From NCBI GenBank assembly GCA_016212795.1, contig JACRDT010000007.1:299627-363626 (forward strand): a stretch of DNA of 64,000 nucleotides. The letters run 5' to 3'. This document shows positions 17,053 through 62,119 of this stretch, piece by piece; within the stretch, counting starts at the first letter, position 1; each line of letters starts with the position of its first letter. This stretch comes from Elusimicrobiota bacterium (GTDB lineage: Bacteria > Elusimicrobiota > Elusimicrobia > UBA1565 > UBA9628). The notes beneath the pieces were generated by a model that saw nothing but the letters and a program-made list of their open reading frames with translations, did no database searches and was not told the origin of the DNA. Both the position numbers and the translations under genes were made by a program.

Positions 17053-17313
17053 CTACATTACGACAAAACGGCAGAAACGCGAGCATGGCAGAATCATGCC
17101 ATGACTCGCCCCATAATGTCCTAGAAGCTCCGCCACCGTTTTCAGGTCTACCCCCTTCATCACTAGCTCGCTTGCGAAACTGTGCCGCAGGTCGTGAAAG
17201 CGAAAGTCTCTCAGCCCTACCGCCTCGAACGCCTTCTCCCGATGTCGAATCTTACCACTTTTGGTGCGCCGAAGCTCAAGGGTGTTCGCGTTCTGGTCAA
17301 TGTCAGCCCTCCG
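17053..17313 (-). pseudogene. tyrosine recombinase (phage-type integrase) C-terminal fragment
   Basis: The minus-strand frame between stops reads [77 protein letters not shown]. The HDLRH and LLGH boxes are present, but the N-terminal ~250 aa and the final catalytic Tyr context are missing. There is no start codon, and it lies directly 5' of tRNA-Ser. Confidence 0.7.
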
Positions 17314-17406
17314 TCAAGTGGTACAATGCCTCCCGGCCCACAAGGCCCGATGTCCGCGAGCATCGGAGCGGTTTGGCCGCTCTCTCGCGGAGGCGGCTCA
17401 GTTTTC

Positions 17407-21617: not shown

Positions 21618-22361
21618 CTACTCGCGCACGATGGCGGCGACGCCCTGGCGGCAGCGCAGCCGTCCCGTCAGGCCGAAGCAGTCCATGCGGCCGCACCAGG
21701 AGATGTCGCGCTCGAGGCCGAGCTTCATGAGGGCCCGGCCGTTGGCGCCGGCCTTGAGCGACCGGGTCAGCCCGCGCCGGTTGAGGTGGTAGGCCGAGAA
21801 CGCGGCCATGGCGGCGTCCGAGAGCTCGACGCCCGGGAGCCTCTTCTGCACGAGCTCGACGAGGCAGCCCGCCGCGAGGCAGTCCTCCCAGGAGAAGTCC
21901 GCCACGGTCCCGGCGCAGACGATCTTGAGCCCGTGGCCGCAGCCCGGCAGGAGCGCCGCGACGGCCCTGGCCGTGGCCGAGACGTTCAGGAACGAGGCGA
22001 CGTAGACGGCCTTGGCCTTCTTGGCCGCGTGGATGGCGCGGGTGCCGTTGGTGGTGGCCATCACGATGGTCCTGCCCGCCACGGCGGGCGCGGTGAAGGC
22101 CGGGGGCGAGTTGGCCAGGTCGAAGCCGGGGATCCTGACGCGGTTCTTCTCCCCCGCAAGGAGGCTGCCCGGGAGCCCGGCCGCCAGGGTGCGGGCGTGC
22201 TCGACCGAGTCCGCCGGCACGATCCGGGAGGCGCCGTTGGCGAGGGCCGTCACCATGCTCGACGTGGCGCGAAGGACGTCGAAGATGACGCAGACCGAGC
22301 CGGAGAGGTCGCGGTCCGGCAGGGTCCGGATCTCGGTCGGGGTGAGGATGACGTCGATCAT
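21618..22361 (-). CDS. comB: 2-phosphosulfolactate phosphatase family protein
   Basis: VIFDVLRATSSMVTAL, GEKNRVRIPGFDLANSP and VMATTNGTRAIH match ComB-family motifs. Confidence 0.7.
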   Translation of the reverse strand: MIDVILTPTEIRTLPDRDLSGSVCVIFDVLRATSSMVTALANGASRIVPADSVEHARTLAAGLPGSLLAGEKNRVRIPGFDLANSPPAFTAPAVAGRTIVMATTNGTRAIHAAKKAKAVYVASFLNVSATARAVAALLPGCGHGLKIVCAGTVADFSWEDCLAAGCLVELVQKRLPGVELSDAAMAAFSAYHLNRRGLTRSLKAGANGRALMKLGLERDISWCGRMDCFGLTGRLRCRQGVAAIVRE

Positions 22362-22417
22362 GTCACTTGCCTCCCCCGCGGGGAGGCAAGTAGTTGTGGG
22401 GGCTGATGACGTGTCAC
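22358..22417 (-). promoter_or_regulatory. mini-ORF/hairpin element, copy A (19 codons, VTRHQPPQLLASPRGRQVT)
   Basis: GTG 22417-22415 overlaps the ChaN-like stop (GTGA). TGA 22360-22358 overlaps the comB ATG (ATGA). A 12-bp stem pairs 22365-22376 with 22380-22391 (ACTTGCCTCCCC/GGGGAGGCAAGT), and its 3' arm (on the transcribed minus strand) contains GGAGG. Confidence 0.6.
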
Positions 22418-23435: not shown

Positions 23436-24557
23436 CTACGGTTTCTCGGCGGCCGGACCGCTTGCGCCTTGGCCGCAGGGAGCGGCCCTCATGGCCTTGG
23501 GGATGTAGGCGCAGAAGGGGTCCGTCTCGAGGAAGTCGCCCGTGACGGCCCAGGCCCGGGCGCGGGAGCCCGAGCAGACGTCGGCGTATTCGCACACGCC
23601 GCAGCGGCCCTTGAGCAGCTTGTGGTCGCGCAGCTCGCGGAAGGGGTGCGCGTTGCGGTAGATGTCGGCGATCGGGTTGGTGCGGACGTTGCCCGACGCC
23701 AGCGGGAGCAGGGCCGAGGGGCAGATGTTGCCGACGTGGTCGACGAAGATGCAGCCTTTCCCGGCGTTGGGCACGATGCCCGGGGTCTCGACCTCTTCGC
23801 GGATCCCGGGCCCCCGGTTGGGCTTGGGGGACGCGCCGCCGGCCAGTTCCTTCTCCATCAAGAAGCGCTTGAAGTGCGGGGCCTCGGTGAGCTTGACGTA
23901 ATAGGGGGCCTCGAGCTTCAGGGCGCAGAGCCGCTCGAAGGCGTCCTCGAACTCCTGCGCCGAGATGCCCCGTTCCTGGCCGCTGAGACCCCACGGCACG
24001 AGGAAGGAGATCTCCCAGAAGGCGATGTCCAGGGTGTTCACGAGGCCGATCATCTGCTCCAGGTAACGGTAGTTCCATTCCGCCACGCAGGTGTTGAGCT
24101 GGACCGGGAGGCCGAGCTCGCGCGACAGGCGCAGCCCGGCCATGCTCATGTTGAAGGAGCCGTCCACCTTGCGGAAGGTGTCGTGGGCGGCGGCGTTGGG
24201 CGCGTCGAGGCTGAACCCCAGCTGGTCGAGACCGGCGGCCTTGAGGCTCCGGAGGCGGGCCTCGGTGATGTTGGCCGTCGCGGCCGGCGTCGCCGCCATG
24301 TGAAGCCCGATGCTCTTGCCGTGCTCCACGAGTGCCTCGATGTCCCGGCGGTTGAGGCAGTCGCCGCCCGAGAGGGTGAAGATCGGCGTGTCCATGGCCG
24401 CGATGTCGGCCAGGAGGCGCTTGCCTTCCTCGGTGGAGAGCTCGGCCGAGTCCCTGGCCAAGATGGCCTCCGTCCGGCAGTGGGAGCAGGCCACGGCGCA
24501 CGAGCGCGTGGTCTCCCAGACGGCCAGGAGAGGGGATTCGTTGTAGTCGATCTTCAT
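23436..24557 (-). CDS. radical SAM/SPASM-domain protein (AhbD/NirJ/PqqE-like maturase class)
   Basis: CAVACSHC (CxxxCxxC) near the N-terminus and a C-terminal Cys-rich SPASM-like region (CIFVDHVGNICPS...GRCGVCEYADVCSGSRARAW...FCAY). I prefer ATG 24557 (MKIDYNESP) over the listed GTG 24575, which lies inside the hairpin. The same GAGTGAtATG junction occurs at 52492. Confidence 0.8.
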   Translation of the reverse strand: MKIDYNESPLLAVWETTRSCAVACSHCRTEAILARDSAELSTEEGKRLLADIAAMDTPIFTLSGGDCLNRRDIEALVEHGKSIGLHMAATPAATANITEARLRSLKAAGLDQLGFSLDAPNAAAHDTFRKVDGSFNMSMAGLRLSRELGLPVQLNTCVAEWNYRYLEQMIGLVNTLDIAFWEISFLVPWGLSGQERGISAQEFEDAFERLCALKLEAPYYVKLTEAPHFKRFLMEKELAGGASPKPNRGPGIREEVETPGIVPNAGKGCIFVDHVGNICPSALLPLASGNVRTNPIADIYRNAHPFRELRDHKLLKGRCGVCEYADVCSGSRARAWAVTGDFLETDPFCAYIPKAMRAAPCGQGASGPAAEKP

Positions 24558-24558
24558 A

Positions 24559-24612
24559 TCACTCGCCCCCCCCACGGGGGGGCGAGTAGCGGGGGGGCAG
24601 ATGCCGTTTCAT
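24559..24612 (-). promoter_or_regulatory. mini-ORF/hairpin element, copy B1 (17 codons, MKRHLPPRYSPPRGGGE)
   Basis: ATG 24612-24610. TGA 24561-24559 is followed by 1 nt and then ATG 24557. A 12-bp stem pairs 24561-24572 with 24576-24587. Nearly identical to the copy at 52437-52490. Confidence 0.65.
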
Positions 24613-24668
24613 CAGGGATCTCCTTCCCACGGGGAGGCGAGTAGCTGAGGGGGCGAGTGCTGTTCTAT
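24613..24668 (-). repeat. degenerate tandem copy B2 of the same element (no start codon; supplies AAGGAG to B1)
   Basis: The minus strand reads AGAACAGCACTCGCCCCCTCAGCTACTCGCCTCCCCGTGGGAAGGAGATCCCTG. It aligns with the element core (..CCCCC..GCTACTCGCC.CCCCG.GGG..) but the 3' arm has decayed to GGGAAGGAGAT, which is a perfect SD 8 nt before the B1 ATG. Confidence 0.5.
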
Positions 24669-24678
24669 TGGTATCCTC

Positions 24679-24864
24679 TCAGCCTTTGTTCTTGTCGATG
24701 TCCTCGGGGCGCTTCTCCGGGGGCGCGTCTTCCTTCAACCCCTGCTTGAACGCCTTGATGGACTTGCCAAGGCTCTGGCCGATCTCGGGGAGCCGCTTGG
24801 CCCCGAAGACGAGCAGCGCGATCGCGGCGACGGCCAGCCATTCTCCCCAGCCGGGGTTGAACAT
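24679..24864 (-). CDS. tatA: twin-arginine translocase subunit TatA/E
   Basis: 61 aa: MFNPGWGEWLAVAAIALLVFGAKRLPEIGQSLGKSIKAFKQGLKED, the canonical TatA TM plus amphipathic helix. Confidence 0.9.
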   Translation of the reverse strand: MFNPGWGEWLAVAAIALLVFGAKRLPEIGQSLGKSIKAFKQGLKEDAPPEKRPEDIDKNKG

Positions 24865-25278: not shown

Positions 25279-25381
25279 GCAGGCGAGATTATACCGCATC
25301 GGGGAAGTCGTCGCTTTGTTGCGCGGCGCTTTCCCGGACTGCTATTGTTTCCCGGTGAGGCCGGGGTATCGGGCGTGGGGC

Positions 25382-27910
25382 ATGACGGGCGCAGCCGCCG
25401 CCGGCATCGCGCTTTCCCTGCCGGGTCTTCTGGCGGCGGACGGGCCGCCGTGCGGTTTCGACACGAAGGCGTTCGGCGCCGACTGCCTCGGCGATGAGGA
25501 GCGCGCCGGGCTGCCGGAGGATAGGCTCGTCAAGTGGGTGGAGTCCTGCTCGTCGAGCGTCGACGCGTCGAGGATGGCCTGCCACTCGGCCATCGAAAAG
25601 CTCGAGGCCGACTTCTCCGGCCCCCTGTCCGACGAGCAGCGCCGGGAGCTCGCCGACAAGATCGCGGCACACAAACGCACGGCCGACGAGCTCAGCGACG
25701 CCATCCAGCATTACCTCAGTCGGGAAGACACTCAAAAGGCGCTGGAAAGGCTTGAGAGCGGACACGTAACGCTCACGAACCAGACTCGACGCCTCGTCAC
25801 GGATACCGAGGCGGTATGGGACGCGGCGGATTTCGTGTCCGGCAAGGTCTCCGAATGGCTGCAGGGGCGCTCCGACAAGGGCCCGCGGGCCGAGAACACC
25901 GGCCTTCCGGTCTCCGGCGCAGGCCGGGTCGAGCCAGGGAAGGACCCTCCGTTGAAGACGGAGCCGGCCGCGCCCGACCCGGAGGAGCTCCGCCGCCTGG
26001 CGGGCAAGGAACAGCGCCTCGCCAAGAGCGGGGGCTCGCCCGAGGACCTGGCGGACTCTTGGAGGCTGCTGGGCCGGCAGTACGAGCACGCGGGCAGCAC
26101 GGAGGCGGCGAGCCGCGCCGTGGACCGCTCCATCGCGCTCTACCCCGGCAATCCCGACGCGTACGTGACCCGCAGCGGCGTGAGGCTCGCGGGCGGCGAC
26201 CGCGCCGGCGCCTTGAGGGATGCCAAGAAAGCCTTGGAACTCGACCCGGGCCATCCCAGGGCGCGCAAGCTGGAGGCTGCCCTGACCTCCGCGCTCGGCG
26301 GCGGGCTCGACGACAAACTCAGGCTCCGCCAGCCGGTCTTCGACTCCTCGGCCGGGCAGCCGGCGGCGGGGGCCGCGGGCGGCGTGGGCGGCGCGGGGGA
26401 TTGGCGCCGCCAGGGCGGCGGGGCGGGGCGGCCGAAGAAGGGGCCGCCGAGCCCGGCGGAACTGGCCGCGGAGGCGGCCAGGCGCAAGCTGCGCGCCGGC
26501 GACTTCACGGGCGCGATCGTGGACCTGACCCGCGCCATCCAGCTCGACCCGCGCAACCCCGCGTTCTGGCGCATGCGCGCCGAGGCGTCCAACCGCTCCG
26601 GCCATCACCGGGCCGCGGCGGAGGACGCGGACCGCGCCTTGAGCCTGGACCCGGACGATCCCCTGGCGCTGCTGGAGCGAGCGTACGCTCGTCTGGAGCA
26701 GGGCGACCCGGCGGGGGCGCTGGCGGACGCCAGGCGCGCCGCGGAGCTCTCGCCCGGGAACGCCCTGGCCCACCTCTACATGGCCATGGCGAAGGAGCGC
26801 CTGGGGGACGCCGCGGGAGCCGCCGCGGACTACGAGGCCGCGGCGAAGCTCGACGCGGCCCTGCGGGCGGTGGCGGACGAGGCCATGGCTCGGATGGGCG
26901 CCAAGTCCCCCCGGCCCGCGGCGCAGGGGCTCTGGCCCGGGCTGCGCCGCAGGGGGCCGATCCTCCCGCTGCTGGCGGTCGCGACGCTGCTGATCGGATT
27001 TCCGTTGACGCGCAAGCTGGCGGGGTGGACCACGCGGTCCCAGCCCGCGGAGCCTCCCCTCGAGCCCAGCCTGGCGACCTTGGCGGAACGCCCGGCGATC
27101 CTGGCTCCCGGCGCCATGGTGGGGAGCAACCTGTGCGTCGTCCGGGAGCTCGGGCGCGGCGGCATGGGAGTGGTCTACGAGGCCTTCGACACGGCCCTGC
27201 ACCGCTGCGTGGCGGTCAAGCAGCTGCGCCGAAACCTCTACCCGGCCCCCCAGGACTACGAGCGTTTCCTCCGGGAGGCGCGCGTGGTCGCCAAGATGAG
27301 GCACCCCAACATCGCGCGGATCCAATCGGTGGTGGAGGCGGAGGGAGACGCGTTCCTGGTGTTCGACCTGGTGCGCGGACGGACGCTGGACGCCGTCGTG
27401 AAGGAGAAGGGGCGGCTGGGCGCCGCCGAGGCGGGCCGGATCGTGGGCGAGGTCTGCGCCGCGCTCGAGCATGCCCACGGCCACGATGTGATCCACCGGG
27501 ACCTCAAGCCCGCCAACGTCATGCTCGACGACGGGGGCCGCTGCCTGGTGATGGACTTCGGCATCGCCCACCAGTCCCGCTCGGCGGGCAAGCAGACCTG
27601 GACCGCGGCGTGGGGCACGCCGCCGTACATGGCGCCGGAGCAGGAGCTCGGCAGGGTGTCGCTGGAGTCCGACCTGTTCGCCGTGGGCGTGATGGCCTAC
27701 GAGCTGCTGACGGGAAGCCTGCCGTTCAAGGGGCCGAACTTCCTGGCGGACAAGATGGAGCGCCGCTGGGCGCCCGTCACCCGGCTGGACCCCGGCCTGC
27801 CCGCGGCCCTCGACGCGTTCTTCGCCAAGGCGCTGGAGCCCGAGCCGGCCGCGCGCTTCAGGGGCGCGCGCGAACTCGGAGCGTCCTTCGCTGGAGCCGC
27901 GGGCGCGTAG
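25382..27910 (+). CDS. Ser/Thr protein kinase, paralog of 4062..6554 (4-Cys helical + TPR ectodomain, one TM, C-terminal kinase)
   Basis: Trimmed from the 1080-aa ORF, whose 5' part overlaps tatA and the YfiM-like gene on the other strand. Motifs: GRGGMGVVYEA, VAVKQL, HRDLKPANVM, DFGIAH, GTPPYMAPE. TM is ILPLLAVATLLIGFPL. The TPR block aligns with the first kinase. Start is uncertain: ATG 25382 chosen, 25277 possible. Confidence 0.8.
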   Translation: MTGAAAAGIALSLPGLLAADGPPCGFDTKAFGADCLGDEERAGLPEDRLVKWVESCSSSVDASRMACHSAIEKLEADFSGPLSDEQRRELADKIAAHKRTADELSDAIQHYLSREDTQKALERLESGHVTLTNQTRRLVTDTEAVWDAADFVSGKVSEWLQGRSDKGPRAENTGLPVSGAGRVEPGKDPPLKTEPAAPDPEELRRLAGKEQRLAKSGGSPEDLADSWRLLGRQYEHAGSTEAASRAVDRSIALYPGNPDAYVTRSGVRLAGGDRAGALRDAKKALELDPGHPRARKLEAALTSALGGGLDDKLRLRQPVFDSSAGQPAAGAAGGVGGAGDWRRQGGGAGRPKKGPPSPAELAAEAARRKLRAGDFTGAIVDLTRAIQLDPRNPAFWRMRAEASNRSGHHRAAAEDADRALSLDPDDPLALLERAYARLEQGDPAGALADARRAAELSPGNALAHLYMAMAKERLGDAAGAAADYEAAAKLDAALRAVADEAMARMGAKSPRPAAQGLWPGLRRRGPILPLLAVATLLIGFPLTRKLAGWTTRSQPAEPPLEPSLATLAERPAILAPGAMVGSNLCVVRELGRGGMGVVYEAFDTALHRCVAVKQLRRNLYPAPQDYERFLREARVVAKMRHPNIARIQSVVEAEGDAFLVFDLVRGRTLDAVVKEKGRLGAAEAGRIVGEVCAALEHAHGHDVIHRDLKPANVMLDDGGRCLVMDFGIAHQSRSAGKQTWTAAWGTPPYMAPEQELGRVSLESDLFAVGVMAYELLTGSLPFKGPNFLADKMERRWAPVTRLDPGLPAALDAFFAKALEPEPAARFRGARELGASFAGAAGA

Positions 27911-27961: not shown

Positions 27962-30667
27962 TCACGGGCGGAGGAGGAGGTCCTCCCCGGTCTCCGAGCC
28001 GATGGTCATCTGGGGCGTCTGCTCGCGGTTGTCGCGCCGGGCCCGGTCCTTCACGTTGGGCAGCAGGAAGTCGTAGAGCGACTTCACCGTCACCTTCCCG
28101 TCGGCATCCTTGGCCGCGCCGTTGAGCCCCTTGAGCAGGTAGTACGTGAACAAGCCGTGGCCCTGGTCCGGCGCGGTCCCCGAGATCTCGTCGGACTGGG
28201 AGGCGCTGAAGGTGACCGTCTTCCCGGTGCCTGCCACCCCCAGCTCCAGCTTGCTGACCAAAGGCCGGGTCCCGGGCGCCAGGACCGAGCGGCCTCCGGC
28301 GCCGGAGAAGCAGGAATCCAGCGCGACGATCACCCGCCGGACCTTGAGCCCGTTGAGCGTGTCGTAGAGGCGCTTCACGGGGTAGGCGGTCTCGGCCAGG
28401 TATTTCGGGTCCCCGTCGGACGGCAGCAGGTAGGCCTGGCCGCTGACCGGGTCCGGGGCCCCGTGGCCGGAGTAATAGAAGAAGACGGTCGACTTCTCGT
28501 TGGCGTTGCGCGGGAGCCAGGTCTCGATGTGCTTGAGCAGGCCGGTCTTGGTGGCCTTGGCGCCCGTCAGGAAGACGATGTTGCGCTCGGGCACGCCCAG
28601 GCCGCGCAGGTGCTCCCGGACGGCCTCGGCGTCGCGCTCCGCGAACTGTGCGTCGGGGAGGTCGGAGTACTTCTCCACCCCGGCCACGATGGCCAGCTGG
28701 TCCGGGTCCTCCGGGACGGCGTACGCGGGCCGGTCCACCTCGGTGGAATACGACACCTGGACCGGGGCCTTGTCCTCGACCTTGCTCACGGTGGCCTTCC
28801 GGATGGCCTCGTCCATCATGCGCTGCATCTCGTCCTTGTCCACGGACGGGGAGGAGGGCGTCGAGCCGCGCTTGGGCTTCTCCAGGCCCTCCTGGTAGCG
28901 GACCAGGAGGCGCACGATGTCCCCCTGGCCCTGGACCTCGGCCATGAGCGCGGCGGTCTGCTTTTTGCGGTTCTTGATCTTCATGTCGGCCCCGTGCAGG
29001 AGGAGAGCCTTGACCAGGTCCACCCGGCCGTCGCGCGCGGCCAGCATGAGCGCCGTCAGGCCCAGGGTCTTCTCCTTGGCGTCGATCTCCTTGCCGGAGG
29101 CCAGGACGAGCCCGACCAGGTCCGCGTCCCCGTTGACCACCGCGTGCATGAGCGGGGTCCAGCCGGATTCCTCCGTCCCCGCCGTCCGGGTCCCGCCGCG
29201 GATGAGCTCCTTGGCGATGTCGTTCTTCTTGAGCGAGATGGCGTGCACGAGTGCGGTCCGGCCCCGCGCGTCCTTCCGGTTGACGTCGGCCCCCTTGGCC
29301 AGCAGGGCGCGGACGATCTCGAGGTCCCCGTGTTGGACCGCGAGCATCAGGGGCGTCAGCCCTTCCTGGTACGTCCCCCCCTGGTCGGCGCCTCGCCGCG
29401 CCAGCTCGAGCGCGATCTCGCCCTTGCTCCCCAGCAGCGCCTGCATGAGCGCGGTGCGGCCTGCCTCGTCGCGCGCGCCGCTGTCGGCCTTCTTCTCCAG
29501 CATGAGCCCGGCCAGCTCGGGGTCGCCGCGCTCGACCGCGAGCATCAGGGTCGTGCGCCCTTTCTCCGAGCCTCCGAGCTCGGCCCCGCCCCGCACCAGC
29601 TCCTTGGCGGCGTCGATGCGGTTGTTGAGGAGGGCCCACATCACCGCGGTCCGGCCGTCGGCGTCCTTGGCCTTGGTGTCGGGCTTGCGCTCCATCGCGG
29701 TCTTGACCACGGCGGCGTCGCAGTGCCGCACCGCCATCATCAGGGTCGTCTCCTTGGTGTCGCCCAACCCCGAGATGTCCGCGCCGCCGCGCAGGAGCTC
29801 GAGGGAGACCGCCTTGTCGCCGGCCAAAAGAGCCTGCATGAGCGCCGTGTGCTTCCTGGCATCCCGGCGCTCGGTGTCGGCCCCTTTCTCCAGCAGGATC
29901 CTCACGATCGCCGGGTCCGAGCGCTTGACCGCGTACATGAGGGCGGTGCGGTCCTGCCCGTCGCGCCGCGCGGCGTCGGCTCCCCGGGCGAGCATCTCCT
30001 GCAGGACGGGGGGTTCCGCGAGCTCGGCGGCCAGCATCAAGGCGTCCCGGCCGCCGTCGGTCTCCCCTCCGAGGTCGGCGCGGTTTTTCAAGAGCAGCAG
30101 GGCGAGGTCCCCTTTCTTCTGGAGGATGGCCTGCATCAGGGGGGTGGCCCCGCCCCTGTCCTTGGCCCTGGTGTCGGAGCGCCTCTCCAGCATGGCGCGT
30201 ACCAGGTCCGCGTCGCCGAGCTCGATGGCGAGGTGGAGCGTGCTGCGGCCGTCCTTGTATTTGCCGTTGACCTCGGCCGCCGAGGCGGCCAGGAGCTTGG
30301 CCGTGGCGAGCAGGTCAGGCTCGGGGCGGGCGGCTCGCGCCAGCGCCCGCATGAAGACGGTCTGGGACTCGGCGTCCTTGGCGTTGAGCTTGGCCCCCCT
30401 GTCGAGCAGCAGCCGGAAGACTTGGGCGTGGGAGGCGGGCGGGGCGGCCCAGACGAGTTGGTGGAGAGGCGGCAGGCCGCCGGCGTTCCTGGCGTTCGGG
30501 TCCGCGCCCGCCTCCAGGAGACGTTTGACCTCGTCGACCTGGCCATCGGCGACGGCGCGGGGAAGCAGGTCCTTGGCCGGCTTGGCGGGCTTGGCGGCGA
30601 CGGCGGGCGGGATCGCCCCCGCGAGCAACAGCGGCACGATGAAGAGGACCGGGCGCATCGATGGCAT
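27962..30667 (-). CDS. ankyrin-repeat protein with C-terminal caspase-like (peptidase C14) domain, secreted
   Basis: Signal peptide MPSMRPVLFIVPLLLAGAIPPAVAA. A long array of 33-aa ankyrin-like repeats (G.T.LM.A...G....V..LL..GAD....D). The C-terminal domain has FYYSGHGAP and ALDSCFSGAGG and is clearly paralogous to the 1869..4055 C-terminus (VDRP.Y...EDP....V.GVE.Y.DLP.A.FAERDAEAVREHL). Confidence 0.85.
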   Translation of the reverse strand: MPSMRPVLFIVPLLLAGAIPPAVAAKPAKPAKDLLPRAVADGQVDEVKRLLEAGADPNARNAGGLPPLHQLVWAAPPASHAQVFRLLLDRGAKLNAKDAESQTVFMRALARAARPEPDLLATAKLLAASAAEVNGKYKDGRSTLHLAIELGDADLVRAMLERRSDTRAKDRGGATPLMQAILQKKGDLALLLLKNRADLGGETDGGRDALMLAAELAEPPVLQEMLARGADAARRDGQDRTALMYAVKRSDPAIVRILLEKGADTERRDARKHTALMQALLAGDKAVSLELLRGGADISGLGDTKETTLMMAVRHCDAAVVKTAMERKPDTKAKDADGRTAVMWALLNNRIDAAKELVRGGAELGGSEKGRTTLMLAVERGDPELAGLMLEKKADSGARDEAGRTALMQALLGSKGEIALELARRGADQGGTYQEGLTPLMLAVQHGDLEIVRALLAKGADVNRKDARGRTALVHAISLKKNDIAKELIRGGTRTAGTEESGWTPLMHAVVNGDADLVGLVLASGKEIDAKEKTLGLTALMLAARDGRVDLVKALLLHGADMKIKNRKKQTAALMAEVQGQGDIVRLLVRYQEGLEKPKRGSTPSSPSVDKDEMQRMMDEAIRKATVSKVEDKAPVQVSYSTEVDRPAYAVPEDPDQLAIVAGVEKYSDLPDAQFAERDAEAVREHLRGLGVPERNIVFLTGAKATKTGLLKHIETWLPRNANEKSTVFFYYSGHGAPDPVSGQAYLLPSDGDPKYLAETAYPVKRLYDTLNGLKVRRVIVALDSCFSGAGGRSVLAPGTRPLVSKLELGVAGTGKTVTFSASQSDEISGTAPDQGHGLFTYYLLKGLNGAAKDADGKVTVKSLYDFLLPNVKDRARRDNREQTPQMTIGSETGEDLLLRP

Positions 30668-31375: not shown

Positions 31376-32215
31376 ATGAATCGGACGATCGACCTGATAC
31401 TCCTGACGCTCGGCTGTCTATCCATCGGTGCGGGAACATACGTCATCGCCGCCGATTCCCCGCTCCTAGAGGGCATCGGCGGGATGGGCGTCGTGTTCAA
31501 GGGGTGGGACCGGGAGCTCGAGCGGGACGTCGCAATCAAGCGGATGCATGGCGCCATCGCCAAGGACGCGAAGGCCCGGGACCAGTTCCTCCGGGAGGCC
31601 CGCACCGTCGCCAAGCTCAACCACCCCTACATCGTGGCCATCCACGACATCGTCCGGTCCGCAGACGACCTCTACCTCGTCTTTGAGCACGTCGACGGGG
31701 AGACCATTTCGGACATCCTGGTCAGCAGCAAAAAGCTCGAACCCAAGGAGTGCGTCCGCATCCTGCGCTTCGTCTGCGAGGCCCTGGCTCACGCACACGA
31801 GAACGGCGTCATCCATCGCGACCTCAAGCCCGCCAACATCATGATGAGCAGGCGCGGCTACGTGAAGGTCATGGATTTCGGCATCGCCAGGCACCTCTCG
31901 GCCGGCCACAAGTTGGGAGAGGGGACCATAGCGGGCACCCTGCCCTACATGGCCCCCGAACAGCACGACGGGAAGTCCTCGGCGCAGTCGGATGTCTACT
32001 CCCTGGGCGTCGTGGCCTACGAGTTCCTCATGGGCGAGCGCCCATTCTCGGGCGTCCACTGCCACAGGGACAAGGAGGCGGAACGCTTCCCTCCCCTGTC
32101 CAAGAACCTTCCTGAAGGGCTCTCCCGCCTAGTCATCGCCTGCCTCAAGAAGGACCCGGCGGCCAGGCCCCAGGGGATGAGCCGGGTGATGGCCGGGCTG
32201 GTGGCGGCCCGCTGA
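31376..32215 (+). CDS. short Ser/Thr protein kinase: N-terminal TM + kinase domain only
   Basis: LILLTLGCLSIGAGTYVIAA, then GIGGMGVVFKG, VAIKRM, HRDLKPANIM, DFGIAR, GTLPYMAPE. It has no ectodomain and a shortened N-lobe lead-in. Confidence 0.75.
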   Translation: MNRTIDLILLTLGCLSIGAGTYVIAADSPLLEGIGGMGVVFKGWDRELERDVAIKRMHGAIAKDAKARDQFLREARTVAKLNHPYIVAIHDIVRSADDLYLVFEHVDGETISDILVSSKKLEPKECVRILRFVCEALAHAHENGVIHRDLKPANIMMSRRGYVKVMDFGIARHLSAGHKLGEGTIAGTLPYMAPEQHDGKSSAQSDVYSLGVVAYEFLMGERPFSGVHCHRDKEAERFPPLSKNLPEGLSRLVIACLKKDPAARPQGMSRVMAGLVAAR

Positions 32216-39554: not shown

Positions 39555-39595
39555 GACCGGATTATGTCAAATCCACGGGGTCGATTCAATGAAAC

Positions 39596-39687
39596 CACTC
39601 ACCTCCCCCGCGGCCTGGCCGAGTCCTACAGTCGGCCAGGGGTGAGTAGCCGAGGGGGTAGATGTCGTTTCATGGGAGAGGTGAGTC
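39596..39687 (-). promoter_or_regulatory. mini-ORF/hairpin element, copy C (15 codons, MKRHLPPRLLTPGRL; hairpin split by a nested 7-bp hairpin)
   Basis: ATG 39673-39671, TAG 39628-39626. The outer stem is ACTCACC/GGTGAGT (39641-39647 with 39597-39603). The inner hairpin is TGGCCGA...TCGGCCA. A second copy of the 5' arm (GACTCACCTCTCCC, 39674-39687) sits just upstream of the ATG. The 3' arm ends 41 nt before the TolQ-like ATG 39554. Confidence 0.55.
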
Positions 39688-49395: not shown

Positions 49396-50564
49396 CCCTG
49401 ATCGCGCGGGCGCTGTGCCTGCTGGCCGCCGCGGCCGCGGCCGCCGCCGTCTCCGGCGAGCTGAGGGCGGCCTCCGACGACGGCGGCTCCAAGGCCGCCG
49501 GCGGCGCGGGCGGCGCCGGCAAGACGGATTGGTCGGTCGCGCTCGACGTCCCCCCGGGCTGGGAGGACGTGACGGGCCAGCGCAGCAGCGCCGACATCGT
49601 GGCGGCGCTCGCCGGCCCCGAGGGGAGCTCCTTCGTGCTCGCCAAGCTCAAGCCCGCGGGGCTCTCCGACGCCGCCGGCAAGAGGGCCCTCCTGCTCGAC
49701 GTGCTGTCCGGGGTCAACAGGAAGACGGGGCTCTCCTTCCTCCCCAAGCGCGAGTTGAAGACCGCGACGTACAAGAACGACGTGGCCGCCCATTACATCC
49801 AGGCCGACCTGGACGGCAAGCCCCGGATGATCCTCGCCATCACCGAGTTCCGGGGCCGCTACATGCTGGGCACCATCAAGAGCAGCGTGCCCGACACCCT
49901 GCTGCCCTCCATCCTGGGCTCGATCCAGTACGGCGCCGGCGGCCGGGACCAGCGTCTCGCGCGGCGCGGGACGAGCGTCGACGGGCAGCTCGCCTTCGCG
50001 CTGCCCGAAGGCGTCTGGCTGCGGGCCGTGTCGGCCCGGGAGAGGAATAAGGGGATGGTGGCCGTGATCCTCGGCTACGATTCGGTGATGAGCGTCACGA
50101 AGCTCGACGAGATCGGCTCCTCGGCCACCGAGGAGGCCGGGATGGTCAAGTACGTCCTGAAGTCGGTCAAGGGCGTCGACAACCTGTCCGTCTCCCTGGT
50201 CCAGTCCATGTCCACGCCGGCCGGGCCGGGGCTCCTCTACGCCTGGGCGAAGGTCAAGTCGGAGGCGGGCCAGAGCCAGGCGGCGGCGGGCTTCATGCCC
50301 TGGGGGTACTGGGGCTATTCGCTGTGGGCCTCGGGGCCCCGCTCCAAGGACCTCCTCGAGAGCGCCATGAAGTCGCTCGCCGCGGGGCCCTCGGCCGACA
50401 AGAAGATCCTGGACGCGACGCCGCGGCTGGCCACGACGTGGGGGTTGAGGACCATGCTCCTCACGGGCCTGGGGGCGGCCCTGGCGGCGGTGGTCCTGCT
50501 GGTCGTGGCCGGCCGCCTCGCCCAGGCGCTGCTCAGCCGCAAGAGACCCGTGGAAGAGGAGTGA
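49392..50564 (+). CDS. hypothetical membrane-anchored protein (N-terminal signal, C-terminal TM)
   Basis: ATG 49392 overlaps the upstream stop (ATGA). Signal MTLIARALCLLAAAAAAAAVSG. C-terminal TM LLTGLGAALAAVVLLVVAG. It lies immediately upstream of MoxR. Confidence 0.55.
   Translation: MTLIARALCLLAAAAAAAAVSGELRAASDDGGSKAAGGAGGAGKTDWSVALDVPPGWEDVTGQRSSADIVAALAGPEGSSFVLAKLKPAGLSDAAGKRALLLDVLSGVNRKTGLSFLPKRELKTATYKNDVAAHYIQADLDGKPRMILAITEFRGRYMLGTIKSSVPDTLLPSILGSIQYGAGGRDQRLARRGTSVDGQLAFALPEGVWLRAVSARERNKGMVAVILGYDSVMSVTKLDEIGSSATEEAGMVKYVLKSVKGVDNLSVSLVQSMSTPAGPGLLYAWAKVKSEAGQSQAAAGFMPWGYWGYSLWASGPRSKDLLESAMKSLAAGPSADKKILDATPRLATTWGLRTMLLTGLGAALAAVVLLVVAGRLAQALLSRKRPVEEE
49446..49504 (+). repeat. 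59-nt segment shared with 62051..62109
   Basis: gccgtctccggcgagctgagggcggcctccgacgacggcggctccaaggccgccggcgg versus the 62051 copy gives 55/59 identical by hand alignment. Same strand and same reading frame (AVSGELRAASDDGGSKAAGG). Confidence 0.7.
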
Positions 50565-51577: not shown

Positions 51578-52440
51578 AATATCTCGACCCTATCGCGCTG
51601 GCCAAGCTCAGGAACCTCGACCTGCGGGTCCGCAAGTCCGTGTCGTGGGCTCCCTCGTCGGGCCGCCACCGCAGCGCGACCCGCGGGCTGTCGAACGACT
51701 TCGCCCAGCACCGCGCCTACGCCCCGGGCGACGAGCTGCGCAGGCTCGACTGGAAGGTCTACGCCCGCAAGGACCGCTTCTACGTCAAGGAGTTCGACGA
51801 GGAGAGGATGGCCACGGCCACCATCATGGTCGACGCCTCCGGCTCCATGGGCTTCGGGGGCAAGTGGGACCTGGCCTGCAGGCTGGCCATGGCCATGGCG
51901 TACCTGGTCGTCGCCAAGGGAGACGCGGCCGGGATCCTGACCTTCGACGTCGGCCCGCGGGAGGCGGTCCCCCCCAGGGCGGGCCTCGGCCACCTCGAGG
52001 CGCTCGACGCGGCCCTGGGGCGCTCCGCCCCGGGCGGCGAGACCGACCTGGGCAGGGTGCTGGAGAAGGCCGCCGGGCAGATCAAGCGGCGCTCGCTCAT
52101 CGTCCTCGTGAGCGACCTCATGGGCGACCCCTCGGCTGTCGTGGCCGTGCTGAAATCCTTCAAAGCCAGGCGGCATGAGGTCATGGTCCTGCGGGTGCTC
52201 GACCCCCGGGAACGCTCGCTCGACTTCGAGGGGCCGGTCGTCTTCGAGAGCCTCGAGGACGGCGGGACCCTGGCCAGCGACGCCGACGCCATCCGAGAGC
52301 CCTACGTCCGGGAGTTCGAGAGGATCATGAGGCTCTACGAGAGCGGGTTCCACGGCGCCGAGATGGCCTACGCCTCCTTCTTCACGGACGTGCGCTGGGA
52401 GCTGTCCTTGGCCAACTTCCTGTCGCGTGGGTCCAAATGA
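51574..52440 (+). CDS. DUF58 (vWA-like) protein, MoxR partner
   Basis: TTG start overlaps the MoxR stop (TTGA). HRSATRGLSNDFAQHRAYAPGDELRRLDWKVYARKDRFYVKEFDEE and VDASGSM are DUF58 hallmarks. Confidence 0.8.
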   Translation: MKYLDPIALAKLRNLDLRVRKSVSWAPSSGRHRSATRGLSNDFAQHRAYAPGDELRRLDWKVYARKDRFYVKEFDEERMATATIMVDASGSMGFGGKWDLACRLAMAMAYLVVAKGDAAGILTFDVGPREAVPPRAGLGHLEALDAALGRSAPGGETDLGRVLEKAAGQIKRRSLIVLVSDLMGDPSAVVAVLKSFKARRHEVMVLRVLDPRERSLDFEGPVVFESLEDGGTLASDADAIREPYVREFERIMRLYESGFHGAEMAYASFFTDVRWELSLANFLSRGSK

Positions 52441-52490
52441 AACGGCATCGGCCCCCCCGCTACTCGCCCCCCCGCGGGGGGGGCGAGTGA
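52437..52490 (+). promoter_or_regulatory. mini-ORF/hairpin element, copy D (17 codons, MKRHRPPRYSPPRGGGE)
   Basis: ATG 52437 overlaps the DUF58 stop (ATGA). TGA 52488-52490 is 1 nt before ATG 52492. A 12-bp stem pairs 52462-52473 with 52477-52488 (ACTCGCCCCCCC/GGGGGGGCGAGT). Confidence 0.65.
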
Positions 52491-52491
52491 T

Positions 52492-55371
52492 ATGAGCTTC
52501 ACGCACCCGGCGGCCCTTTGGGCGCTGCCCCTGGCCCTGGCCCCGCTCATCCTGCACCTGCTGAACCTGCGCCGGTCCCGGCGGGTGGAGTTCAGCGACC
52601 TGACGCTCCTGCGGGCCGTCGAGGCCAGGTCGCTCCCGAGGCGGCGCCTGAGGTCGTGGCTCCTGGCCGCGGTGCGCTCCCTGCTCCTGGCGCTCCTGGC
52701 GCTGGCCTGGGCCGGCCCGGTCGTGTCGCGCGGCGGGCCCGGGGCCGGCGAGGGCGAGGCCGGCCTGGGCATGGTCGTGCTGTTGGACTCGTCCTACTCG
52801 ATGGGCTACCGCGTCCACGGCAAGACCCGGTTCGAGGCGGCGCGGGCCGCGGCGGAGCGGGTCGTGCGCGGCCTCGGGTCTGCCGACCGCGTCGCGGTGG
52901 GCGTCTTCTCGGACCGCCTCGAGCTCCCGGCCGGCCCGCTGCGGTGGGCCGAAGGCAAGGCCGAGGCGCTCGAGGTCCTCTCGAAGGCCACCCTGAGCCA
53001 CCGGGGCACCGATGTCGGCGCCGCCCTTACCGCGGCCCACGGGCTCCTGCGGCCGCAGGGCTCCAGCCGCGGGCCGCGCCGGGTCGTGCTGGTGCTCTCG
53101 GACGGCGCGCGCCACGGCTTCAGGCGCGGGGCTCCGGAGCCCGACCCGGGGACCAAGGTGTTGGGTCTCGTCTGGGATGACGAGCCCGCCAACGCTCGCC
53201 TGGCGTCGGTCCTGCCGTCGCCGGAGAGCTCCCCGGTCCAGCCCGCCGTCCTGGCGCGGGCCGCGGCCAGCGGCCCGGCCCCCCGGCAGACCTCGGCGCA
53301 GCTGACCTCCTCGGGCGTGCGCGCCGGGTCCGCCGTCCTGAGCTTCGCTGGCAGGGCCGAGGACCACGCGGTGCTGCGCCTGGGTCCCGCGGCGGACCCG
53401 CGCCGCCCCGCCTGGCAGGGGTGGGTCGAGCTCACGCCGGACGCCCTGAGCGCCGACGACCGCTACTACTTCTCCTTGCGCCACGCGCCCAGGCCCCGCG
53501 TGCTCTGCCTATCCGGCAGCCCCGACTTCTTCAGGGTCTCCCGCGCCGGCTACTTCCTTAAAGAGCTCTTCGGGTCCGAGAAGGGGAGCCTGCTCGCCTA
53601 CGACGGCGACTTCCTGGACATCGGCAGGGCCGAGGAGGCGGCGCTCGCCGACTACCGCGCCGTCATCCTGGCCGATTTCAAGGATATCCCGCCGAAGCTG
53701 CGCAAGGCGCTCGAGGAACGGGTCCGTTCGGGCGCGGGGCTGTGGGTTCTGCCCGGCGCGGCGACTCCCGACGACGCCCTCAGGGAGTTGGGCGGGCTCA
53801 TGCCCGCGGCCGTCGGCTCCTCCGTCTCCCCGGCGGGCGCCTTCGGCCTGGTCCCGGCCGCCGACGCGGTCCGCTCGCCGGAGGGGGCTCGGCCCGCCGA
53901 CGCCGGCGCGGTCTGGAAGGAGTTCGAGCTCCAGAAGGTGGCCGTCCGGCGCTACCGCAGGCTCGAGCCCGCGGCCGGGGCCCGGGTGCTCTTCAGGACC
54001 TCCTCGGGAGACCCGGTCCTGGTCACCGGGTCGCTGGGCGCGGGCGCGGTCGCCCTCTGGGCTTCCCCGCTCGACCTCGAGTGGACGAACCTCGCCCTCA
54101 AGCCGGTCTTCGCCGCGTGGGTGGAGCAGGTCCTCGACATCGTCAGCCGCAAGGCCGAGCTCAAGACTTCGGTGCTCCAGGTCCTGGTGGACGAGCCCAT
54201 CAGGCTGGCCTGGAAGGAAGGCGAGCCGCTGCCCGACGGCGTGAAGGTCCGTTCGCCGCTCGGCAAGCTGACGCCCCTGCGCCCCAAGAACCGCGCGGTC
54301 GCCTACGGCGACACCGCCGTGCCCGGGCTCTACGCCGTCGTCGAGGAGGGGGCGACCGCCCGGGAGAGCGTGTTCGCCGTGAACACGGACCGCGCCTTCG
54401 AGGGCGACCTCTCGCGCCAGCCCGACCCGCCGTGGGAATCCATCCGCGCCGGCGCCGTGGAGGAGGACCTCCGCGGCGCCCTTTTCGGCCGGGACGCGCG
54501 GGGCCAGGCCTTCGGCGGCGCGCTCGCGCTCCTCATCGCCGAGATGCTCCTGGCCTTCCCCTGGCGGAAAAACCAGGGGCCGCCCGGCCTGGGGCGTCCT
54601 CGCCGTTCGGCGTCTTCGGTCGCCAGGGCGCTCGTCTTGCTGGCGCTGGCGCTGCTCGCGGCCGCGCCGTGCTCCGCTCAATCCCCCGCCGGGCCCGGCC
54701 CGAGCGACCGGTTCGTGTGGACCCAGCTCAAGCTGGGGCCGGACTGGGACCCCTACGCGGACGCGGCCAAGGAGGCGCTGGAGCTCTTCGGGAAGGTCAC
54801 CAGCGTCCTGGTCCTGCCGGAGCGCAGGGTCCTGGCGCTCGACGACGAGGCGGTCTTCGAGTCGCCCCTGCTCATCCTGGCGGGCCGCAGCGCTCCCGAA
54901 CCGCTCTCGGACGACCGGCTGAGGACCCTGAGGAGCTTCGTCGCGGGCGGGGGCATGCTGTGGATCGAGGACGTCGCCGGCGCTTCGTCGAGCTCCTTCG
55001 ACCGCTGGGTGAGGAAGACCCTGGCGGCCCTCCTGCCGGAGGCCGAGCTGTCGGCCCTGCCGCCGGACCACGTGGTCTACAAGACCTTCTTTTTCCTGCG
55101 CGGGCCCGCGGGCCGGGCCATGGTGCGGCCGAACATCGAGGGCGTCGTCTGGGGCGGCAGGGTCGCGGTGCTCTACTCCAGGAACGACCTCCTCGGCGCC
55201 TGGGCCAAGGACGCGCTCGGCCGGCCCCTGCTGAACTGCACGCCGGGCGGCGAGGCGCAGCGCCACAACGCCAGGAAGCTCACGCTCAACATCATGATGT
55301 ACTCGCTGACCGGGAGCTACAAGTCGGACGCGGTCCACCAGCCCTACCTCCTCGAGAAGATGCGCCAATGA
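52492..55371 (+). CDS. fused BatA-N (double-TM) / vWA / DUF4159-like protein
   Basis: The N-terminus FTHPAALWALPLALAPLILHLLNLRR is the aerotolerance BatA N-terminal motif. MVVLLDSSYSMG is a vWA MIDAS-type DxSxS. The C-terminal ~210 aa (DRFVWTQLKLGPDWDPY...LILAG...MLWIED...LTLNIMMYSLTG) resemble DUF4159. Confidence 0.75.
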   Translation: MSFTHPAALWALPLALAPLILHLLNLRRSRRVEFSDLTLLRAVEARSLPRRRLRSWLLAAVRSLLLALLALAWAGPVVSRGGPGAGEGEAGLGMVVLLDSSYSMGYRVHGKTRFEAARAAAERVVRGLGSADRVAVGVFSDRLELPAGPLRWAEGKAEALEVLSKATLSHRGTDVGAALTAAHGLLRPQGSSRGPRRVVLVLSDGARHGFRRGAPEPDPGTKVLGLVWDDEPANARLASVLPSPESSPVQPAVLARAAASGPAPRQTSAQLTSSGVRAGSAVLSFAGRAEDHAVLRLGPAADPRRPAWQGWVELTPDALSADDRYYFSLRHAPRPRVLCLSGSPDFFRVSRAGYFLKELFGSEKGSLLAYDGDFLDIGRAEEAALADYRAVILADFKDIPPKLRKALEERVRSGAGLWVLPGAATPDDALRELGGLMPAAVGSSVSPAGAFGLVPAADAVRSPEGARPADAGAVWKEFELQKVAVRRYRRLEPAAGARVLFRTSSGDPVLVTGSLGAGAVALWASPLDLEWTNLALKPVFAAWVEQVLDIVSRKAELKTSVLQVLVDEPIRLAWKEGEPLPDGVKVRSPLGKLTPLRPKNRAVAYGDTAVPGLYAVVEEGATARESVFAVNTDRAFEGDLSRQPDPPWESIRAGAVEEDLRGALFGRDARGQAFGGALALLIAEMLLAFPWRKNQGPPGLGRPRRSASSVARALVLLALALLAAAPCSAQSPAGPGPSDRFVWTQLKLGPDWDPYADAAKEALELFGKVTSVLVLPERRVLALDDEAVFESPLLILAGRSAPEPLSDDRLRTLRSFVAGGGMLWIEDVAGASSSSFDRWVRKTLAALLPEAELSALPPDHVVYKTFFFLRGPAGRAMVRPNIEGVVWGGRVAVLYSRNDLLGAWAKDALGRPLLNCTPGGEAQRHNARKLTLNIMMYSLTGSYKSDAVHQPYLLEKMRQ

Positions 55372-60562: not shown

Positions 60563-62119
60563 ATGAACAACCTCTTCGCCACCAAGCCCCTGGACCTCCT
60601 CCTGGAGGAGATGAAGGGCGAGAACCGCCTGCGCCGCGTGCTGGGGCCCTGGCAGTTGACGAGCCTGGGCGTCGGGGCCATCATCGGCACCGGAATCTTC
60701 GTCCTCACCGGCATCGCGGCCCACGACAAGGCGGGCCCGGCGCTCATCTTGTCCTTCGTGCTCGCGGGCGTGGCCTGCATCTTCGCGGCCCTGTGCTACG
60801 CCGAGTTCGCCTCCATGGTGCCGGTCGCGGGCTCCGCCTACACCTACGCCTATGCCACCCTGGGCGAGCTCTTCGCCTGGATCATCGGCTGGGACCTGGT
60901 GCTCGAGTACACGGTCGCCTCCTCCGCGGTGGCGCACGGCTGGTCGCACTACTTCCAGAACTTCATCGGCATCTTCGGCGTCGAGGTCCCCAAGTGGATG
61001 GCCAAGGCGCCCTTCGATTTCAACCCCGAGCTGGGGCGCTTCGTCGGCACCGGCAGCGTCCTCGACCTGCCGGCCATCATCATCGCGGCCGTCATCGCGG
61101 CCATCCTGGTCAAAGGCATCCAGGAGAGCGCCACCTTCAACACGGCCATGGTGGTGGTGAAATTGGTCATCGTGCTCTTCGTCATCGTGGTCGGGGCCTT
61201 TTACGTGAACCCGGCCAACTGGAAGCCCTTCGCGCCCTTCGGGCTGACCGGGATCAGCTTCTTCGGCAAGACGCTCCTGGGCCAGACCGGGGCCGGGGGC
61301 GAGCCCTTGGGCATGTTCGCCGGGGCCGCCATGATCTTCTTCGCCTACATCGGCTTCGACTCCATCTCGACCCACGCCGAGGAGGCCAAGGACCCGCAGA
61401 AGGACGTCCCCTTCGGCATCATCACCTCGCTCCTCGTCTGCACCGTGCTCTACATCGCGGTCTCGGCCGTGCTCACGGGCATGGTCCCTTACAACAAGAT
61501 CAACATCGACGCTCCGGTGTCCGACGCCTTCAAGCAGATGGGCCTGCCCTGGGCGCAGTTCCTCATCTCCCTGGGAGCCATCACGGGCATCACCTCGGTC
61601 CTGCTCGTCATGATGCTCAGCCAGCCGCGCGTGTTCCTCGCCATGGCCCGGGACGGCCTGGTCCCCCCCTCCATCTTCGGCGCGATCCACGAGAAGTTCC
61701 GCACCCCGTGGAAATCCACCATCCTCACGGGGTGCGTCGTCGGCCTCATGGCCGCGTTCCTGCCCCTGCGCATCCTGGCTGAGCTCGTGAACATCGGGAC
61801 CCTGCTGGCTTTCGTGATCGTGTGCGGGGCCGTCCTGATCATGAGGAAGACCCACCCGGAGGCCAACCGGCCCTTCAAGTGCCCCATGGTGCCGCTCGTG
61901 CCGATCCTGGGCATCGGGTTCTGCCTGCTGCTGATGTTCTCCCTGCCGGCCGAGAACTGGTTGCGCCTGGTCGTCTGGCTCGGCATCGGGATGGCCATCT
62001 ACTTCTTCTACGGCAGGCACCACAGCGTGCTGGCCCAGCGCCGGGCTGCAGCCGTCTCTGGCGAGCGGAGGGCGGCCTCCGACGACGGCGGCTCCAGGGC
62101 CGCCGCCGGGAAAGCCTGA
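60563..62119 (+). CDS. APC-superfamily amino acid permease (cationic amino acid transporter-like)
   Basis: 12+ TM. The N-terminal LRRVLGPWQLTSLGVGAIIGTGIFVLTG and FAALCYAEFASMVPVAGSAYTYAY are typical APC/CAT blocks. The C-terminal tail carries the 59-nt shared segment. Confidence 0.9.
   Translation: MNNLFATKPLDLLLEEMKGENRLRRVLGPWQLTSLGVGAIIGTGIFVLTGIAAHDKAGPALILSFVLAGVACIFAALCYAEFASMVPVAGSAYTYAYATLGELFAWIIGWDLVLEYTVASSAVAHGWSHYFQNFIGIFGVEVPKWMAKAPFDFNPELGRFVGTGSVLDLPAIIIAAVIAAILVKGIQESATFNTAMVVVKLVIVLFVIVVGAFYVNPANWKPFAPFGLTGISFFGKTLLGQTGAGGEPLGMFAGAAMIFFAYIGFDSISTHAEEAKDPQKDVPFGIITSLLVCTVLYIAVSAVLTGMVPYNKINIDAPVSDAFKQMGLPWAQFLISLGAITGITSVLLVMMLSQPRVFLAMARDGLVPPSIFGAIHEKFRTPWKSTILTGCVVGLMAAFLPLRILAELVNIGTLLAFVIVCGAVLIMRKTHPEANRPFKCPMVPLVPILGIGFCLLLMFSLPAENWLRLVVWLGIGMAIYFFYGRHHSVLAQRRAAAVSGERRAASDDGGSRAAAGKA
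62051..62109 (+). repeat. 59-nt segment shared with 49446..49504
   Basis: gccgtctctggcgagcggagggcggcctccgacgacggcggctccagggccgccgccgg encodes AVSGERRAASDDGGSRAAAG at the extreme C-terminus of the permease. Confidence 0.7.

Follow-up and report, generated by a model that had tools for sequence, protein, structure and literature searches.

Mycobacterial interspersed repetitive units (MIRUs; Supply et al. 1997) are mobile repeats that insert at start codons and carry an internal open reading frame (ORF) coupled at -4 nt (PMC12548453). Tetranucleotide direct repeats and both empty and filled sites are described for them, and they contain GC-rich internal inverted repeats as well as ORFs whose ends overlap the adjacent genes (PMC3184786). 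The REP2 repeats of Neisseria (Morelle et al. 2003, as reviewed in PMC3184786) provide a site for ribosome binding, together with an ATG, upstream of ORFs, and in-frame insertion into genes is described for the Rickettsia palindromic elements (RPEs; 105-146 bp, mostly intragenic; Ogata et al. 2000, as cited in PMC3184786). Here we describe a ~55-nt GC-rich hairpin repeat in a 64,000-nucleotide stretch from an Elusimicrobiota bacterium (assembly GCA_016212795.1, contig JACRDT010000007.1, positions 299,627 to 363,626 of the forward strand), referred to below as the window. The window has a GC content of 70% and contains five copies of the repeat at four sites, designated D, B2-B1, A and C. The family to which they belong is probably one of small (~51-55 nt), non-autonomous, MIRU-like mobile repeats of groundwater Elusimicrobia, which insert at start codons.

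Repetitive extragenic palindromic (REP) elements are typically located at 3' ends or in other extragenic positions, with either orientation or an inverted-doublet arrangement, and a gene for a REP-associated tyrosine transposase (RAYT) is linked to them. In synthetic bicistronic design (BCD) cassettes, the second gene's Shine-Dalgarno (SD) sequence lies inside a short leader cistron whose end overlaps the start of that gene, and the translating ribosome clears inhibitory structure. The BCD is mentioned through Sun et al. 2021 (PMC12548453). An earlier reading of the window made from the sequence alone (the sequence-only reading) interpreted the repeat as an obligatory translational relay through a leader peptide, and knew of no described element with such an architecture. 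The latter claim does not hold, as MIRUs have been described (PMC12548453, PMC3184786) and Neisseria REP2 corresponds in part.

Insertion at gene junctions and selection on the hairpin

Flanking genes of the copies were fixed by codon-position GC and Pfam. Copy D (52437-52491, + strand; 79.8 bits in a covariance model) lies between a DUF58 gene and a BatA/VWA/DUF4159 gene. Its left ATGA (52437-52440) is the ancestral stop/start overlap, in which the DUF58 stop codon TGA (52438-52440) overlaps the ATG of a short ORF, the mini-ORF, that runs through the element. It is followed by an inserted 51-nt body (52441-52491), consisting of the 5' motif AACGGCATC-NN-CCCCC..CTACT, the hairpin and GTGAT, and then by a right ATGA (52492-52495), which is the start codon of BatA; position 1 of the Pfam BatA profile aligns with residue 1. 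The mini-ORF, MKRHRPPRYSPPRGGGE (52437-52490), stops 1 nt ahead of the BatA ATG. Orthologous operons were compared in five related genomes (L080, L081, L084, L085 and L086; BatA 49-65% identical). The junction is a bare 4-nt overlap, ...ATGAgcttcac..., in all five, compared to ...ATGA-[51 nt]-ATGAgcttcac... in the window.

Copy A (22358-22417, - strand; 78.5 bits), between a ChaN-like haem-binding gene and ComB, presents the same arrangement. The left GTGA (22414-22417), with the ChaN-like stop, is separated from the right ATGA (22358-22361), the ComB start, by a 52-nt body (22362-22413) that includes the hairpin (22365-22391), and the stop of the mini-ORF overlaps the right ATGA. Two relatives (L083 and L087, 73% and 71% identical, one of them from the same sample) both have the bare junction ...ccccaGTGAt(c/a)gacg..., compared to ...cctcgGTGA-[52 nt]-ATGAtcgacg... 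in the window, with the ancestral GTGA as the left repeat and a new ATGA as the right. Judging from these alignments, the new ATG probably comes from the element, which would end in ATGA and land 3' of NTGA; the alternative is a 4-nt duplication followed by a G-to-A change.

All seven orthologous junctions are plain 4-nt overlaps without the element, so the coupling is older than the element, which is a derived insertion and not an ancestral coupling device. Given the same seven junctions, the proposal that it evolved as an obligatory device for coupling is not supported. The region upstream of ExbB in L081 retains the conserved leader TTTGACATAATCC and lacks copy C. With model R1 (described below), no site was found in ~98 kb of relatives' unbiased sequence, versus four in the 64-kb window, which suggests that the window copies reflect a lineage-specific expansion. 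One Logan contig of this genome stops within the hairpin of copy A, a kind of break that repeats often produce.

The conserved core of the element reads ACGGCATC-NN-CCCCC-N-C-N1-2-CTACT, followed by a 12-bp stem with a 3-nt loop, GTGA, 1-6 nt and ATGA. In copy D the stem (52462-52488, +) pairs ACTCGCCCCCCC with GGGGGGGCGAGT at -28.4 kcal/mol; the copies range from -24.5 to -30.7 kcal/mol, with just -8 kcal/mol for the decayed copy B2. Two stem positions change doubly (U-A/C-G and C-G/U-A), all four combinations being present across the copies, and copy C adds a third compensatory swap, G-C to A-U. The compensatory changes pointed out by the sequence-only reading are thus confirmed. Stem cells are paired in 95.5% of cases versus 57-76% in slid controls, which together with the double changes demonstrates that the pairing is under selection, at the DNA or RNA level. 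An SD-like GGAGG or GGGGG is located inside the G-rich arm of the stem, 8-10 nt ahead of the new ATG.

A scan for intrinsic terminators found none at any copy (the tail 3' of the stem is GUGAUAUGA, with no U-tract), and a promoter scan found no promoter-like site at the copies. Rfam, which the sequence-only reading had proposed for comparison, gave no relevant match at either gathering or permissive thresholds (best hit on the element, E = 0.36); the only Rfam match in the window is a tRNA-Ser. Terminal inverted repeats are not present, as the ends AACGGCATC... and ...GAGTGAT are not inverted repeats of each other. Several candidate identities were considered and rejected. A DDE-type miniature inverted-repeat transposable element would have terminal inverted repeats, and only the 4-nt direct repeat is present, with an ATGAAAC/GTTTCAT pair at copy C alone. 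An intrinsic terminator or attenuator does not fit a GC hairpin without a following U-tract, and an alternative hairpin of the 5' C-run with the G-run is not kept in the CCTCCCC subfamily. For guide pairing of the IS608 type, no convincing complementarity was seen between the 4 nt located 5' of the stem foot and an ATGA target.

Copies in the window and in related genomes

The four loci and five copies described by the sequence-only reading were all recovered by two motif searches, which gave 0 matches in 100 dinucleotide shuffles. Covariance model R1, built from 13 copies and run with filters off over the 64-kb window, found no copy beyond the known five. As that reading stated, every window copy lies on the strand of the gene downstream of it. 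Copy B1 (24554-24612, -; 81.1 bits) contains a mini-ORF (24612-24559) and a hairpin (24561-24587), and its right ATGA (24554-24557) is the start of a radical SAM/SPASM gene (24557). Copies D and B1 are 97% identical over 59 nt, the match extending through the ATGA of the next gene. Copy B2 (24613-24668, -; 35 bits) is a degenerate tandem copy with ATAG instead of ATGA and a decayed 3' arm, and its remnant GGAAGGAG lies 8 nt ahead of the ATG of B1. The B copies are present as claimed; the gene upstream, however, is TatA, whose stop (24679-24681) is 13 nt upstream of B2, and not an ORF ending at 24665.

Copy C (~39590-39687, -; 28.7 bits; ATG at 39673-39671) is atypical. It is located 42 nt from the start of ExbB (39554), in the divergent intergenic region that this gene shares with a response regulator (39736), and its 5' arm is interrupted by a nested 23-nt hairpin insertion (39616-39638, -). 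The nested hairpin is perfect, TGGCCGA-CTGTAGGAC-TCGGCCA, occurs once in the window, and may be a second, smaller mobile hairpin. An additional 5'-arm-like sequence, ACTCACCTCTCCC, is found upstream (39674-39687, -) and pairs with the 3' arm in the minimum free energy fold. Copy C is also the only copy bounded by a 7-nt inverted repeat, ATGAAAC...GTTTCAT (39590-39596 and 39667-39687, -).

To place the window copies in a wider family, one genome per species was scanned, which gave at least 71 loci, mostly chance matches, with at least nine true family members. Among the matches listed, a scope that applies to all the counts in this paragraph, true members were found in only three groundwater Elusimicrobia metagenome-assembled genomes (MAGs; JACQWX01, JACRNU01 and JACRDQ01). 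Between the MAG loci and the window, the match at the nucleotide level is confined to the element, which is more conserved than the flanking genes. The close family comprises at least 14 copies, counted as 12 independent sites (B1/B2 once, and the loci L025/L047 once). Orientation and distance to the next start codon, which the sequence-only reading had suggested tabulating, are strand- and position-specific. The element is in sense orientation at all 12 sites (sign test, ~2 x 10^-4), ends 0-6 nt from a start codon at 11, and has a co-oriented upstream gene at 11. The host genes are of unrelated function: BatA, ComB, radical SAM, ExbB, RpiB-like and others, together with SecY after L15, PlsX after L32, a response regulator and an MvhD-like gene.

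A metagenome scan with a hairpin-only pattern revealed eight loci, all of a more distant subfamily in which CCCCC-N3-CTACTCGCC and the hairpin are kept and the ATGAAACGGCATC head is not. Two scans of viral contigs gave no hits. One distant member is 4 nt ahead of a response-regulator start (L078) and another 7 nt ahead of secG (L075). Two others (L072 and L073) are antisense and in frame within a dihydropyrimidine-dehydrogenase (DPD)/PreA-like gene, between two Fe-S motifs, where they add ~21 residues relative to PDB 1h7x and have GACATG repeats on both sides. A further copy lengthens the 3' end of a TetR gene (L074), and another is within LpxI without a change of length relative to 4ggm (L076). 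At L075 (4420-4460), another GC hairpin (ccccctccc-gta-gggagggg) directly precedes the element ahead of secG, which hints that different hairpin repeats cluster there.

Altered copies include decay (B2), a tandem (B2-B1), a nested insertion (C) and partial duplication of the 3' arm (L027 and L072). At L027 (684-761), the 3' arm and the GTGAC(ATG) tail are partly doubled, GGAGGCAAGTGGCAC-GGAGGCAAGTGA, and at L072 (575-640) the 3' arm and tail are partly doubled, with GGGGCGAGTGACATGG occurring twice. The two duplications suggest slippage or repeated end-joining at the right end of the element. The behaviour of these other copies is that of small selfish repeats and not of a dedicated regulator.

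Proposed mechanism and alternative explanations

All the close copies except B2 start with ATG or GTG, with an ORF that continues through the stem. The mini-ORF overlaps the next start codon by 4 nt in five copies, ends 1 nt before it in four and 4 nt before it in two; at L027 it is fused in frame to the downstream gene. Its start overlaps or abuts the upstream stop in seven copies. These starts and stops agree with the sequence-only reading. The ORF does span the hairpin as stated there, but this follows from composition: since the element consists almost purely of G+C, none of its three frames is closed. At the right end, GTGA-N-ATGA, two frames meet a TGA and the third is that of the gene itself.

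We propose that the moving unit would be (A/C)ACGGCATC-NN-CCCCC-N3-4-CTACT, the 12-bp GC hairpin and GTGA-(N1-6)-ATGA, and that it would land in sense orientation directly 3' of NTGA. This target would normally be a gene's start codon plus A, often within the 4-nt stop/start overlap of coupled genes. The old start codon, through its old initiation signals or through coupling to the upstream stop, would then open an ORF of 17-22 codons through the element. The right end would bring TGA in two frames (GTGA, ATGA), an SD-like GGAGG or GGGGG 8-10 nt upstream, and a fresh ATG. A stem this strong prevents de novo initiation when it covers a ribosome-binding site, and is opened by ribosomes that are translating. 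The -24 to -31 kcal/mol stem would thus be melted by ribosomes on the short ORF; their termination on the new ATG or 1-4 nt ahead of it, followed by re-initiation at that ATG, would keep the downstream gene expressed and the insertion tolerated. Re-initiation is supported when translation ends within a few nucleotides of a start codon (reviewed in PMC12548453).

With the SD-like arm locked in a stable stem, the translational relay of the sequence-only reading is therefore plausible as the way in which the insertion is tolerated; it would explain why the element is harmless, not why it exists. A selfish insertion would here have been made nearly harmless by carrying stops in two frames, an SD sequence and an ATG, opened by the ribosome coming from the old start.

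Several points weigh against a mobile repeat that inserts at start codons. No transposase of any kind was found among ~50 window ORFs or in 270 kb of related loci, so the case for mobility is made by presence and absence of the element alone; the mobilising enzyme would act in trans. The left end of the element is variable (AAACGG, CACGG, GAAACGG, TCCACGG, AGAACAA), and the right ATGA follows the hairpin at a varying distance of 1 to 6 nt, a spread that is untidy for precise transposition. The close copies examined number at least 14, among the matches listed. The right ends are ATGA in 9 of 9 cases, which is only modestly significant because both ATGA starts and NTGA targets are plentiful: of 65 starts called in these genomes, 42 are NTGA and 29 are ATGA, and 21 of 41 co-directional gene pairs have a 4-nt overlap. 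Finally, two MAGs share an orthologous filled site, L025 in one and L047 in the other, whose conservation points to constraint or gene conversion and not to neutral junk. Their flanks are 68-86% identical at the protein level, with 50-59% identity at 4-fold degenerate sites versus 45% expected from composition. The hairpin is identical at 28 of 29 positions (probability ~7 x 10^-6 at an assumed neutral identity of 0.6) and the core at 45 of 47, while the first codons after the ATG have diverged. The pair was found by a pattern that required part of the core but not the hairpin. This conservation could be due to constraint at the level of the host, to gene conversion between copies, or to the element having inserted repeatedly at one junction.

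Another, unlikely, explanation is that the element, whatever its origin, would be a host-selected cis-regulatory RNA, in which the hairpin hides the SD sequence so that the downstream gene could be translated strictly in dependence on the upstream one. Such an RNA would enforce or tune coupling, or serve as a hairpin for mRNA stability or processing within operons. The very stable stems holding a GGAGG 8 nt ahead of the ATG, the compensatory changes, and the exchange of a GTG start for ATG in copy A are in line with such a role, as is the near-fixed core at L025/L047 amid near-saturated flanking synonymous divergence. However, the seven orthologous junctions of relatives are already coupled by 4-nt overlaps without the element, and the host genes have no function in common. 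Some copies are decayed, nested or within coding sequence, there is neither an Rfam match nor a terminator-like tail, and the L025/L047 pair was itself ascertained by a pattern needing part of the core.

A somewhat more doubtful alternative is a REP/REPIN-type element moved by a RAYT (an IS200/IS605-like Y1 transposase) that reads the hairpin as single-stranded DNA, the association with gene starts being a by-product of target choice and purifying selection. The element forms a short GC-rich palindrome, and the foot of its stem carries the tetranucleotide CTAC (GTAG on the opposite strand) without variation. Its asymmetric structure and strand-specific insertion beside a tetranucleotide would suit such an enzyme, and a left GTGA that is kept with a right end of ATGA is what would be expected for insertion 3' of a target without duplication. 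Nevertheless, no Y1 or RAYT gene was found among the window ORFs, nor by tblastn over 270 kb with IS200 TnpA and RAYT queries. There are no inverted pairs, the sole doublet (B2-B1) being a direct tandem; no copy lies between convergent 3' ends, and the close copies are all sense and at gene starts. REP elements have a GTAG-head arrangement at the hairpin, of which the CTAC located 5' of the stem on the sense strand is the mirror. Two further observations concern transposases. A weak tblastn match of the IS200 TnpA query at 17088-17267 was rejected, as it is in a non-coding frame with no Pfam match. A fragment of DUF4096 (IS5-family transposase N-terminal) is present in L081 (22143-22523, -), in a MAG that carries the repeat family elsewhere, with no link to the element seen.

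Equally doubtful is a self-spreading, portable translation-initiation cassette that recognises NTGA junctions, perhaps via single-stranded DNA or the hairpin, and that the host keeps because its SD-locking hairpin turns loose coupling into strict coupling and because weak GTG starts are upgraded to ATG. Such a cassette would explain the near-unchanged core at L025/L047 amid near-saturated synonymous sites in the flanks.

A sequence-specific leader peptide under selection, for example with a PP motif sensitive to EF-P or to translation speed, is highly improbable. A frame giving M[KT]RHxPP is found in 8 of 13 copies. However, the distance from the ATG to the core is 9, 10, 11 or 15 nt among the copies (through +1/+2 nt indels ahead of it), and in two subfamilies there is a 1-nt indel between the C-run and CTACT. 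The peptides are therefore in different frames (MKRHRPPRY..., MRNGISPLRY..., MKNNIRPHSY, MKPPSAPTTT...), and no peptide frame is conserved relative to the core. The sequence-only reading described the differences between copies as mostly third-position and synonymous, which is not borne out. In codons 1-8 of the eight copies that share a frame, 1, 3 and 4 variable sites fall at codon positions 1, 2 and 3, respectively (binomial probability of at least 4 of 8 at position 3, ~0.26), and the variable sites are the N positions of the nucleotide motif regardless of frame. Given these frame shifts, the composition and this distribution, selection on the peptide is not supported. The first codons are the most diverged part of L025/L047, where the nucleotide core is fixed, and B2 has lost its start codon.

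Other features of the window and comparison with known elements

Several other features of the window were observed. A 66-nt direct repeat, 91% identical, is found at 49439-49504 and 62044-62109 (+), in a 573-aa ORF of no assigned family and in the C-terminal tail of an amino-acid permease (...AAAVSGERRAASDDGGSRAAAGKA, followed by the stop), and may be another small repeat embedded in coding sequence. The tRNA-Ser(GCT) gene (16941-17027, -) is located beside an ORF6N/KilA-N-type phage-associated DNA-binding protein (17182-17934, +), in a stretch of weak coding signal that may be the remnant of an integrated element. The window also encodes two large caspase-domain (Peptidase_C14) proteins (1869-4055 and 27962-30667, both -), one with approximately ten 108-nt Sel1 repeats (2768-3826) and the other with ankyrin repeats. 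These are accompanied by three TPR-Ser/Thr kinases (4062-6554, ~25298-27910 and 31376-32215).

The element brings its own stops, ribosome-binding site and ATG to gene junctions, and so it is an example of an element kind already described, like the MIRUs. It is a new, well delimited family of that kind and not a new regulatory device. Start-codon-targeting mini-repeats, discussed mainly for mycobacteria, would thus also arise in an unrelated uncultivated phylum, and the contrast of empty with filled sites is unusually clean in this case. In practice, short-read assemblies are broken by repeats of this sort, which can also mislead start-codon annotation and the discovery of small ORFs in MAGs. 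The mobilising activity, if found, would be an insertion system specific for NTGA or start codons.

Among known elements, MIRUs are the closest in described architecture. They are dispersed repeats of 40-100 bp in operons, oriented as the flanking genes, and the Elusimicrobia units are of 51-55 nt. Both are apparently mobile, insert at start codons, form tandem copies and have no known transposase; both contain GC-rich internal inverted repeats, and an internal ORF whose ends overlap or abut the stop and start of the adjacent genes. Empty and filled orthologous sites with tetranucleotide direct repeats are likewise common to the two, here with five empty orthologues for copy D and two for copy A. 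The Elusimicrobia family falls within the functional definition of a MIRU-like repeat. The two differ in that the Elusimicrobia element has a single, very stable 12-bp hairpin holding an SD-like run, a right-hand ATG that is apparently element-borne (GTG to ATG in copy A), and a distant relative within coding sequence. Since the host phylum is Elusimicrobia, common descent with MIRUs is unlikely; the sequences are presumably unrelated, and the likeness is one of described architecture.

The other systems are similar in fewer respects. Neisseria REP2 repeats have a promoter and mark a co-regulated set of genes, whereas the Elusimicrobia elements lie within operons, have no promoter-like site and adjoin unrelated host genes. 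With REP/REPIN elements they share a short GC-rich hairpin, compensatory evolution, a conserved tetranucleotide at the stem foot and a non-autonomous nature, but the location, the orientation and doublet pattern, and the RAYT linkage of REPs were not seen for the Elusimicrobia element in the window and the related loci. RPEs are also small palindromic mobile elements in frame in genes, as are L072/L073 in the DPD/PreA-like protein, whereas the window subfamily is exclusively at gene starts. Finally, the leader ORF, SD sequence and overlapping start are arranged as in a BCD, of which the Elusimicrobia element would be a natural counterpart; the BCD is engineered, and is neither mobile nor repeated.

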